Below, piece after piece: positions 17,815 through 64,000 of a stretch of DNA of 64,000 nt. The notes under the pieces are model-generated. The model did no database searches. It worked only from the letters and a program-made list of their open reading frames with translations, and was not told the origin of the DNA. This DNA comes from Dehalococcoidia bacterium. Lineage in GTDB: Bacteria > Chloroflexota > Dehalococcoidia > Bin125. Within the stretch, counting starts at the first letter, position 1. Each line of letters starts with the position of its first letter. The DNA is taken from assembly GCA_963555985.3 (NCBI GenBank), contig OY820591.1, positions 2,624,001 through 2,688,000 on the forward strand, given 5' to 3'. A program made the translations under genes and the position numbers.

Positions 17815-17904
17815 TGGCGGAGAGGGTGGGATTCGAACCCACGAGGGCCTTGCAGCCCTACACGCTTTCCAGGCGTGCCTGATCGTCCACTCCAGCACCT
17901 CTCC
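17815..17904 (-). tRNA. tRNA-Ser(GGA)
   Basis: GGAGAGGTG…CACGCCT-GGA-AAGCGTG, long variable arm, GGTTCGAATCC, ends CCA. Confidence 0.95.
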
Positions 17905-17918
17905 GAGATTCCGCCAAC

Positions 17919-18010
17919 TGGCGGAGAGGGTGGGATTCGAACCCACGAGGCACGTCGCCGCACCTACCGATTTTCGAGATCGGCTCCTTCGGCCACTCGG
18001 ACACCTCTCC
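17919..18010 (-). tRNA. tRNA-Ser(CGA)
   Basis: GGAGAGGTGTCCGAGTGG…CCGATCT-CGA-AAATCGG, long variable arm, T-loop, CCA; TATACT just upstream. Confidence 0.95.
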
Positions 18011-62473: not shown

Positions 62474-63556
62474 TCAGCTCCCGCCGACCGCCTCCGCGAT
62501 CATCCCGCCCAACGCCGCCGTAGCCAACGGCTCATCCCCCTCCGAGGCCAAGTCCGCCGGGCGGTGACCGGCGGCCAGCGTAGCCATCACCGCCTGCTCA
62601 ATCGCCGATGCCTCCTCCTCCAGACCAAAGGAGTAGCGCAGCATCAGCGCCGCGCTCAGAATCATCGCCATCGGATTGGCGATCCCCTGACCGGCGATAT
62701 CCGGCGCAGTACCGTGAATCGGCTCGTAGAGACCGCTCGAACCTGCGCCCAACGACGCCGACGGCAGCATCCCCATCGATCCCGCCAGCATCGACGCCTC
62801 ATCCGTGAGAATGTCGCCGAACATGTTCTCCGTCACGATCACGTCGAAGTAGGACGGGTGCCGGATCAAGTCCATCGCGCAAGCGTCGACCAGGCGGTGC
62901 TCCAGCGTGACGTCCGGGTACTCAGGAGCGATCTCGTCGGCGATCTCGCGCCACATCCGCGAGGTATCGAGGATGTTCGCCTTATCCACCGAGGTCAGCA
63001 AGCCGCGCCGCGCTCGCGCCGTCTCGAAGCCCAGCCGCACGATCCGCTCCACCTCCGGTTCGGAGTACGCGAGCGTATCCACCGCCTTCCGTTCGCCATC
63101 CTCTTCCCAGCGCCGCTGCGGTTCGCCGAAGTAAATGCCCCCGGTCAACTCGCGCAGCACGACCATATCGACCGCCTCCACCGTCTCGCGCTTGAGCGGC
63201 GTGCTGTCCGCCAGAATCGGCAGCATCTTCACGGGGCGAATATTGGCGAACAGCCCCAAACCCTTACGCAGACCCAAAATCGCCTGCTCCGGACGCACGC
63301 TCGCCTTCGGGTCGTCCCATTTCGGGCCGCCCACCGCGCCGAACAGCACCGCGTCCTGCGCCTTGCACATCTCCAGCGTTTCGTCGCGCAGCGCGACGCC
63401 GTGCGCATCGATCGAGGCTCCGCCGACCAGATCTTCGGTGTAGGCGAAGGAGTGATCGAAGCGTCCCCCAACCGCATCGAGCACGCGCACAGCTTGAGCG
63501 ATCACTTCGCCGCCGATCCCGTCGCCGGGTAGCAGCGCGATGTCGTAATGGGCCAT
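62474..63556 (-). CDS. leuB: 3-isopropylmalate dehydrogenase
   Basis: LPGDGIG, GAVGGPKW, RELTGGIYFG, NMFGDILTDEA, YEPIHGTAPDIAG. Confidence 0.98.
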   Translation of the reverse strand: MAHYDIALLPGDGIGGEVIAQAVRVLDAVGGRFDHSFAYTEDLVGGASIDAHGVALRDETLEMCKAQDAVLFGAVGGPKWDDPKASVRPEQAILGLRKGLGLFANIRPVKMLPILADSTPLKRETVEAVDMVVLRELTGGIYFGEPQRRWEEDGERKAVDTLAYSEPEVERIVRLGFETARARRGLLTSVDKANILDTSRMWREIADEIAPEYPDVTLEHRLVDACAMDLIRHPSYFDVIVTENMFGDILTDEASMLAGSMGMLPSASLGAGSSGLYEPIHGTAPDIAGQGIANPMAMILSAALMLRYSFGLEEEASAIEQAVMATLAAGHRPADLASEGDEPLATAALGGMIAEAVGGS

Positions 63557-63568
63557 ATCTCGGTATTC

Positions 63569-63772
63569 CTAATCGTCGCTTGAGCGCTCAGCCTGAGCGC
63601 GCTCCGCTGTCACTCAACAGCCGGGATCGCCGTAGTTGCCGCAGCAGTTGTCGAGTCTGCGCAGCTTAATCCAGTTGTTCGCCAAGAGCCCGCGAACGGC
63701 GTCGCGCAGACTCTCGGCGCGGCGCAGATTGACAAGCGAGTCCCTGAACGAAGGAGTCGGATGCCGCCCCAT
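63569..63772 (-). CDS. Small CCGxYGxPGC protein; candidate selenoprotein (TGA at 63614-63616 read as Sec). Ends at 63614 if TGA is a stop
   Basis: GGAG RBS; MGRHPTPSF…NCCGNYGDPGC-TGA-VTAERAQAERSSDD-TAG. Confidence 0.7.
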
Positions 63773-63884
63773 GTTCAAGCTCCGTTCGCGCCTGCTTGCA
63801 CAGCCATGGTATCGCCGCCCGCCCCAGCAGGCCGACAAAACAACCGCGCGATCTCGCAACAGACCAAGCCCCCAGTCCCCAGCC

Positions 63885-64000
63885 CTACTCCTCCGGCGGA
63901 CGCTCAGCCTGAGCGCGTTCCGCCGTCACTCAACAGCCCGGCGCGCCATAGTCGCCGCAGCAGCTTCGGCGCCTCCACAGCCGATCCCAAGCGATAATCA
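63885..64000 (-). CDS. Second small CCGxYGxPGC protein (5' end outside the window); candidate selenoprotein
   Basis: IIAWDRLWRRRSCCGDYGAPGC-TGA(63930-63932)-VTAERAQAERPPEE-TAG; not in the ORF track. Confidence 0.65.
63894..63925 (-). promoter_or_regulatory. Putative bacterial SECIS hairpin (homologous copy at ~63582-63604)
   Basis: CGGCGGA-ACG-CGCTCA-GGC-TGAGCG-TCCGCCG starts 4 nt after the TGA; first loop G is 21 nt after the TGA. Confidence 0.6.

Follow-up and report, generated by a model that had tools for sequence, protein, structure and literature searches.

In bacteria, the selenocysteine insertion sequence (SECIS) of the Escherichia coli fdhF type is a stem-loop within the coding sequence (CDS) that lies directly 3' of the UGA, with its apical loop approximately 20-25 nucleotides (nt) from the UGA and a G early in that loop. 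Vicinal Cys and selenocysteine (Sec, U) residues form the redox centre at the flexible C-terminus of mammalian thioredoxin reductase, the animal enzyme being a large flavoenzyme with a C-terminal Gly-Cys-Sec-Gly redox centre, and a CCG tripeptide occurs in the Cys-rich, metal-cluster-binding setting of the HdrB-type domain (PF02754). Small selenoproteins with a Cys-Sec (CU) motif have been tabulated (Table 1 of PMC13188914), and the "Hypothetical protein GOS_A" is reported to have 2 Sec-containing and 155 Cys-containing sequences (PMC2398784). Here we describe two adjacent minus-strand genes at the end of a 64,000-nucleotide stretch of DNA from a Dehalococcoidia bacterium (assembly GCA_963555985.3, contig OY820591.1, positions 2,624,001 to 2,688,000; hereafter the window), each of which encodes a short protein closing with the motif CCGxYGxPGC directly before a TGA. 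On sequence evidence these open reading frames (ORFs) are very probably tandem paralogues in a genuine, unannotated family of small bacterial selenoproteins of approximately 50-90 residues.

The family resembles each of these systems in part. As in the SECIS of the E. coli fdhF type, its hairpin stands 3' of the UGA at a comparable loop distance and has a G in the loop, but the stem is short (mostly 6-8 base pairs, bp), the loop measures 3-5 nt and there is no Rfam SECIS match. With thioredoxin reductase it shares a vicinal Cys-Sec pair that follows a Gly in a flexible segment near the C-terminus, a likeness of motif and not of homology, whereas the present proteins are free-standing, 50-90 residues long, possess an additional Cys-Cys pair and have no flavin domain. 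The CCG tripeptide is common to the HdrB-type domain and the family, but length and Cys spacing differ and no Pfam match was obtained at E ≤ 1. Like the CU-motif selenoproteins tabulated in PMC13188914, these proteins are small, carry a Cys-Sec dyad near the C-terminus and have metal or redox roles predicted from sequence. What sets the present family apart, judged against the names and motifs given in that table, is the CCGxxGxPGCU motif with its additional vicinal Cys pair, the pair of basic helices at the N-terminus and a translated tail that is acidic or rich in His. Because their Cys-Sec dyad stands near the C-terminus, the SECIS of the CU-motif families would lie at or past the end of the CDS. 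GOS_A differs in its reported counts from the present family, which is Sec-dominant, and the two are set apart by these Sec and Cys counts and not by sequence.

The features of the two genes are as follows.

63569-63772, minus strand: copy 1, full CDS of 52 codons, a Sec codon, a 14-codon tail and TAG, predicted to give a 67-residue selenoprotein (translation with TGA as U, and homologues)
63614-63616, minus strand: in-frame TGA of copy 1, read as putative Sec residue 53 (homologue codon counts and Cys-form proteins)
63584-63600, minus strand: SECIS-like hairpin of copy 1, a 7-bp stem GCGCUCA/UGAGCGC with loop GGC, from 13 nt past the UGA (RNAfold)
63885-64000, minus strand: in-window part of copy 2, a gene of 68 residues that runs from a TTG at window-equivalent 64091 to TAG at 63887-63885
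63930-63932, minus strand: in-frame TGA of copy 2, read as putative Sec residue 54 (sequence and translation)
63894-63925, minus strand: SECIS-like hairpin of copy 2, a 7-pair upper stem and a 6-bp lower stem (RNAfold, -21.7 kcal/mol)

No family copies other than these two are present in the window's genome. Copy 1 starts at an ATG (63772-63770) with GGAG 7 nt 5' of it, and copy 2 at a TTG beyond the window (L003:1091, where L003 denotes this locus) with GGAGG ahead, such that a Shine-Dalgarno-like GGAG or GGAGG stands 6-7 nt ahead of the start in both. The 52-codon ORF of copy 1 closes with NCCGNYGDPGC, after which the TGA (63616-63614) is followed in frame by VTAERAQAERSSDD up to the TAG at 63571-63569; the ORF of copy 2 closes with SCCGDYGAPGC and, past its TGA (63932-63930), the frame continues as VTAERAQAERPPEE up to its own TAG (63887-63885). 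An earlier reading of the window from its letters alone (the original prediction) had pointed to the two gene endings at 63614 and 63930, to a post-TGA frame differing only at synonymous third positions, to a TAG 15 codons past each TGA and to a common hairpin with its loop G 21 nt past the UGA, and all of these were recovered. Across the first 10 post-TGA codons the copies show exactly three differences (ACA/ACG, GAG/GAA, CGC/CGT), all of them synonymous and in the third position; both frames run for 14 codons before TAG; and the hairpin sequence common to both is GCGCTCA-GGC-TGAGCG(C/T), with the first loop G 21 nt after the A of the TGA in each case. The additional lower stem claimed for copy 2 also exists, but RNAfold gives it 6 bp (63925-63920 with 63899-63894) and not the 7 bp proposed, beneath an upper stem at 63916-63900 that includes one G-U pair. 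In contigs of four DNA runs, which come from one study that is possibly the source of the assembly and which confirm the sequence only, the TGA of copy 1 showed no variant, and the single variant near the TGA of copy 2 (63933 A>G) is a synonymous minus-strand TGT>TGC change in the preceding Cys codon.

The codon that follows PGC is conserved among homologues. In a six-frame protein search of 60 relatives, a match with one TGA inside it was found in 36/36 searched genomes of the same taxonomic family, and the motif was extracted from all 36. The 49 distinct copies from relatives have TGA after PGC in 48 cases and TGT in one (L060, genome G047), with neither TAA nor TAG. A wide scan with the pattern CCG[NRH][YPH]G[DQA]PGC, the next codon being left free, over one genome per species (185,579 species) yielded 446 stretches and 254 relatives. 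Codons were counted in the best 80 of these 254, where 113 motif instances were followed by TGA 111 times, by TGT twice and by TAA or TAG not at all; the remaining 174 may include Cys forms at a higher rate. The in-frame UGA therefore holds the same position across homologues, and the genomic TGT (Cys) forms are L060, L120 and L138. The 80 loci belong to metagenome-assembled genomes of Dehalococcoidia/Chloroflexota (including Tepidiformaceae, Caldilineaceae and Ardenticatenaceae), Acidimicrobiia, Nitriliruptorales, Acidobacteriota and one Deltaproteobacteria, the family being found mainly in Dehalococcoidia, where the gene usually lies between leuD and leuB, and in Acidimicrobiia. The recurrence of motif, TGA and hairpin in 36/36 genomes of the same family and in 80 loci elsewhere argues that the feature is more than chance. 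Weak protein matches in six genomes (G040, G041, G046, G055, G058 and G060) were not counted as members, the two loci inspected among them, L063 (G046) and L069 (G060), having no motif match. In one middle paralogue (L096:6567-6614) a run of approximately 18 C directly after the TGA leads to a poly-Pro tail and a displaced hairpin; the homopolymer may have been misassembled, or the copy may be in decay.

Database proteins extend the comparison to forms in which the tail is translated without recoding. A profile search over 1.84 billion representatives gave 472 matches at E ≤ 0.001, and 266 database proteins were retrieved. Most of them (238/266) end exactly at ...PGC, which bears out the expectation that gene callers truncate these genes, while 19 have Cys at the Sec position followed by a tail and three have W there, where a gene caller had translated the TGA as Trp. 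Among the homologues whose Cys aligns with the UGA, one (P0007) shares 51% identity with the Sec form L053 over 77 residues, tail included. The tail is homologous in Cys and Sec forms, so that the stretch downstream of the TGA corresponds to one that is necessarily translated in the Cys forms. Used as the lone query in a homologue search, P0007 matched nothing but itself. Tails of 124 distinct Sec forms have a median length of 16 residues (five residues or fewer in four of them), with a composition of 12.5% Glu, 11.9% Asp and 10.1% His; at least three His are present in 37/124, and at least two in 14 of the 19 Cys-form tails by a manual count. A codon analysis with groups picked by tail peptide was dropped as circular, and the signal was weaker after regrouping on the upstream motif. 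In the resulting group of 102 sequences, picked by that motif alone, post-TGA entropy is higher at the third codon position (1.42) than at the first (1.07) and second (1.03), and 19.5% of the codon differences are synonymous in frame 0 compared with 11% and 12% in the other frames. One Cys form of 49 amino acids that ends in ...PGCCD (P0240) is called "predicted DCC family thiol-disulfide oxidoreductase YuxK" by one source, and this is the sole non-hypothetical name among the 120 database homologues listed.

A hairpin accompanies the TGA throughout the family. Hairpin statistics were taken from the minimum-energy fold of positions +1 to +55 in 130 unique sequences, with criteria made for this analysis, and by these a stem-loop with a G in its loop lies 3' of the UGA at a constrained distance. 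An uninterrupted hairpin of at least 5 bp is present in 111/130; of these 111, 96 have a stem that begins at offset 14-18, 99 have their first loop nucleotide at +21 to +26 and all contain a G in the loop, and the 5' stems comprise 53 distinct sequences. In a MAFFT alignment of 123 unique 48-nt segments the hairpins fall in register, with the first loop G at least 90% conserved. Over six named pairs in these 123 sequences, 88.3% of cells can pair compared with 71.0% in column shuffles (0/500 reach the observed value) and 35-47% in slid controls, the covariation score is 0.546 compared with 0.238 in shuffles (again 0/500), and RNAalifold independently returned five of the six pairs, all five with compensatory changes. 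The hairpin is kept across subgroups although the stem and the encoded tail peptide differ, which argues that both the RNA and the protein are under selection. The Cys-form locus L060 has no hairpin and reaches its stop two codons later. In a scan for terminator-like sites with a T-run, the SECIS-like hairpins of both copies were not among the sites found.

The window's genome encodes the machinery for Sec, with selA, selB, selD and tRNA-Sec (74 bits) all over cut-off. Across the TGA-form genomes tested, 57/57 have at least one Sec marker over cut-off and 53/57 have selA. The latter comprise 40/41 Dehalococcoidia genomes with a verified TGA form, the exception (G053, 85% complete) having selB, selD and tRNA-Sec, and 13/16 genomes of other groups, where G067 and G072 have a fragmented selA and tRNA-Sec (G072 also selB) and G073 has selB and tRNA-Sec over cut-off. 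The Cys-form genome G047 (90% complete) has 0/4 Sec markers over cut-off. In the window's genome selD (G000:C1:1998583-1999506, minus strand) has one in-frame TGA, as does selD of G053, so that SelD is itself a selenoprotein in these genomes. Two selA matches with identical scores (531.1 bits) lie at G000:C1:1680550-1681896 and G000:C7:5496-6842; contig C7 may duplicate part of C1 or represent a strain variant of it (the contamination estimate of the genome is 7.54%). The tRNA-Sec model also has two adjoining weak matches, which at 42 and 40 bits stay under its gathering score, at 17818-18010 of the window, minus strand (G000:C1:2641818-2642010); these are probably two tandem long-arm tRNA genes.

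The original prediction had interpreted both genes as selenoproteins and had proposed to examine the codon after PGC in homologues, the region downstream of the TGA and the Sec machinery of the genome. All three came out in its favour (TGA in 111/113 and TGT in 2/113 instances, a homologous tail in the Cys forms, four markers over cut-off), and the interpretation is strongly supported by TGA conservation, Cys homologues, the covarying hairpin and the Sec machinery together. Several observations nevertheless weigh against reading the TGA as Sec. The sequences are related and not independent, so the counts given above are not probabilities. Downstream folding energy is slightly better than in shuffled sequences (-16.6 compared with -14.5 kcal/mol, with 101/130 sequences beating their own shuffle mean), and because this difference is weak the case for the hairpin was built on position and covariation. 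An Rfam scan of L003:400-1200 returned no SECIS family and chance-level matches only. The coding signature of the tail is weak, with a synonymous share of 19.5% compared with 46.7% upstream of the TGA, and it is absent in a divergent group of 28 sequences, for which the ungapped alignment is not valid. The median open stretch after the TGA measures 16 codons in frame 0, compared with 28 and 11 in frames +1 and +2; open-frame length was accordingly dropped as evidence, the DNA being GC-rich and frame +1 more open than frame 0. Seven RNA runs contain just 0.04 of the sampled locus words. Finally, the Cys-form Acidimicrobiia genomes G061 and G062 have selA, so that having the Cys form need not go with loss of the Sec machinery.

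By analogy with known systems, we infer that recoding in this family is canonical bacterial Sec decoding. The ribosome would meet the UGA directly past ...CCGxxGxPGC, where a GC-rich hairpin approximately 13-15 nt downstream, whose first loop nucleotide is a conserved G, would recruit SelB with Sec-tRNA(Sec). Sec would then be inserted and translation would run through the hairpin, typically for approximately 16 codons, to the true stop.

Invariant residues of the protein are C43, C44, G45, G48, P50, G51, C52 and U53, and N15, R17 and N32 are near-invariant. An AlphaFold2 model built with 114 sequences (mean predicted local distance difference test, pLDDT, 86.1; predicted template modelling score 0.64) folds residues 9-18, 22-39 and 56-65 into helices and places the CCGxxGxPGCU motif in a loop at 40-55. 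The predicted protein would consist of two basic N-terminal helices, a Gly/Pro loop that presents Cys43-Cys44 and Cys52-Sec53, and a short acidic C-terminal helix or tail, the tail being rich in His in many homologues. Many members across subgroups and phyla (e.g., L031, L033, L037, L076, L117 and L150) start with MC..., a Cys at residue 2 that the window copies do not have and that could be a fifth ligand. In Dehalococcoidia loci L075-L103 the tandem paralogues number two or three and fall into distinct, conserved subtypes that recur across genera, namely one with a His-rich tail, one with a TGPPDAQDE-type tail and a leuB-proximal one with a hydrophobic second helix, which suggests that tandem copies hold separate roles.

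What the protein does can be proposed only tentatively; the original prediction had named a metal or Se carrier, a redox peptide and a modified-peptide precursor as candidates. Our favoured suggestion, which we hold at somewhat less than even odds from the residue pattern, is that the CC...CU tetrad may be a soft-metal site and the protein a metallochaperone or metal buffer, with the His/Asp/Glu tail assisting in many members. Three results count against this functional assignment: the tails of copies 1 and 2 are acidic with zero His, Foldseek found no match in the PDB at E ≤ 0.001, and no conserved neighbour outside the leu genes was found in 80 loci and 20 neighbours in other phyla. A search of the ESM Atlas returned unnamed clusters only, which resemble the family itself, with structure matches at template modelling scores of 0.51 or below, too low for a family to be named. 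Since the window copies have no tail His, the family can do without a His-based metal tail, and the same acidic tails would suit a second possibility, the main alternative and in our estimate somewhat less likely still, in which the protein is a genuine selenoprotein but CC...CU is a redox centre whose Cys-Sec selenenylsulfide exchanges with Cys-Cys, the protein acting as a small thiol/selenol oxidoreductase, as a scavenger of peroxides or electrophiles, or as an electron shuttle. The vicinal Cys-Sec and Cys-Cys pairs are both invariant, and the Cys-Sec centre of thioredoxin reductase offers a precedent. Most uncharacterized selenoproteins are considered probably redox in function in a 2026 review (PMC13188914). 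There is, however, neither a thioredoxin fold nor the CxxC/UxxC spacing, no linked reductase was found in the contexts examined, and His-rich tails (37/124 Sec forms and many Cys forms) point to metals.

The gene next downstream of copy 1 is:

62474-63556, minus strand: leuB, 3-isopropylmalate dehydrogenase (ORF)

As had been claimed, the TAG of copy 1 (63571-63569) overlaps the AGGA of the leuB ribosome-binding site (63570-63567), 10 nt ahead of the leuB ATG (63556). The leuB orthologue in L095 matches Pfam Iso_dh (E 3.7e-135) and is 89% identical to the window leuB (tblastn). Upstream of the copies, beyond the window, the same strand encodes a Rieske/KshA_C-type oxygenase (L003:1108-2262). 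Neighbour clustering over the 80 loci found leuB on the downstream side of 36 and leuD (Aconitase_C) on the upstream side of 30, including Tepidiformaceae, and otherwise lineage-specific genes only. In the window's genome leuD is located approximately 12 kb further upstream (G000:C1:2699865-2700449, minus strand) but directly flanks the small genes in most Dehalococcoidia loci, which suggests that a block with the Rieske oxygenase and a GPP34-P450 gene was inserted here. In Acidimicrobiia, Acidobacteriota and other groups the 20 immediate neighbours are unrelated to each other. These surroundings point to no functional partner, and the leu linkage may be inherited synteny. A bolder version of the metal-site proposal, which we regard as doubtful, would have the family as a new, Sec-dominant class of free-standing seleno-metallopeptide whose CC...CU clamp, often with a His-rich tail, handles a soft metal or an iron-sulfur fragment and which, having become fixed between leuD and leuB in Dehalococcoidia, protects, repairs or loads the oxygen-labile [4Fe-4S] cluster of isopropylmalate isomerase (LeuCD) there, with leuB translation perhaps coupled to selenium-dependent read-through by the overlap of the copy 1 stop with the leuB ribosome-binding site.

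Small genes, the two or three tandem paralogues of many Dehalococcoidia and a Cys-rich, invariant C-terminal motif would also be expected of the precursor of a ribosomally made modified peptide or cofactor, with the N-terminal helices as leader and CCGxxGxPGCU as core, but we consider this very improbable: no maturase-like or other modifying enzyme is conserved alongside in the 80 loci and 20 neighbours, where leuD and leuB stand next to the gene in Dehalococcoidia and unrelated housekeeping genes elsewhere, and the confident, compact helical AlphaFold2 model (mean pLDDT 86) is unusual for a leader-core precursor. That the TGA is an ordinary stop, the protein ending at ...PGC and the hairpin being an attenuator, stabilizer or processing RNA element for the downstream gene, is the least probable reading of all, since the 238/266 database entries that end at PGC, the 4/124 forms with tails of five residues or fewer, the uninformative openness of the post-TGA frame and the position of the element just upstream of leuB in Dehalococcoidia are set against a stop-type codon that is TGA in 111/111 cases and never TAA or TAG, Cys codons that align with the TGA in forms whose continuing tail is homologous to the Sec-form tail, a hairpin-TGA distance that stays fixed even in phyla without leuB downstream, Sec machinery in 57/57 TGA-form genomes, a Cys-form locus (L060) without the hairpin, and hairpins that no T-run follows.

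Pfam and NCBIfam scans of both window proteins gave no match at E ≤ 1, and 114 members searched against NCBIfam release 20.0 (E ≤ 0.1) produced only four single, chance-level matches to unrelated models; the hidden Markov models of KCU-star, SaoC, MbdU and the other selenoprotein families in NCBIfam thus gave no match to the family. The family comprises 1,252 database clusters at 90% identity, and the 120 homologues listed of these 1,252 have no Pfam domain and, with one exception, are unnamed or called "hypothetical protein". No fitting entry appears in a 2022 table of 87 families (PMC9312934), nor in a May 2026 table (PMC13188914) in which 119 prokaryotic families and subfamilies all have a domain model. 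No description was found in literature on the selenoproteins of Dehalococcoidia, SAR202 and sponge Chloroflexi or on the motif strings, the BSepDB family list lying outside this comparison. On these grounds the family is a new one among bacterial selenoproteins, the recoding mechanism itself being ordinary. If confirmed, it would be a widespread addition to the prokaryotic selenoproteome, in which members are systematically mis-annotated as a truncated "hypothetical protein"; as the family is missing from Pfam, NCBIfam and the 119-family catalogue, selenoproteome counts for Chloroflexota and Acidimicrobiia would be too low. Sec greatly outnumbers Cys at the position, which suggests that selenium matters to the function of these proteins and that sulfur is no simple substitute for it. 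The invariant CC-x7-CU would offer a new chalcogen arrangement for the study of metal and redox chemistry, and the set of covarying hairpins could serve as a clade-specific SECIS model and improve selenoprotein gene callers.

Two further observations concern the neighbourhood of the genes. Between the copies, a hairpin of terminator type with a T-rich tail begins 25 nt past the copy 2 stop and occupies 63843-63860 of the window, minus strand (L003:860-843); terminator-like sites in the region number two compared with 1.8 expected by chance, and this one may be meaningless. Past the window end, a plus-strand gene (L003:2400-4448; C1:2689400-2691448), divergent from the Rieske/KshA_C oxygenase, encodes a protein of 682 residues in which a GPP34 (Golgi phosphoprotein 3) domain (E 1.7e-31) is fused to a cytochrome P450 (E 5.6e-35), a domain combination unusual for a bacterium.

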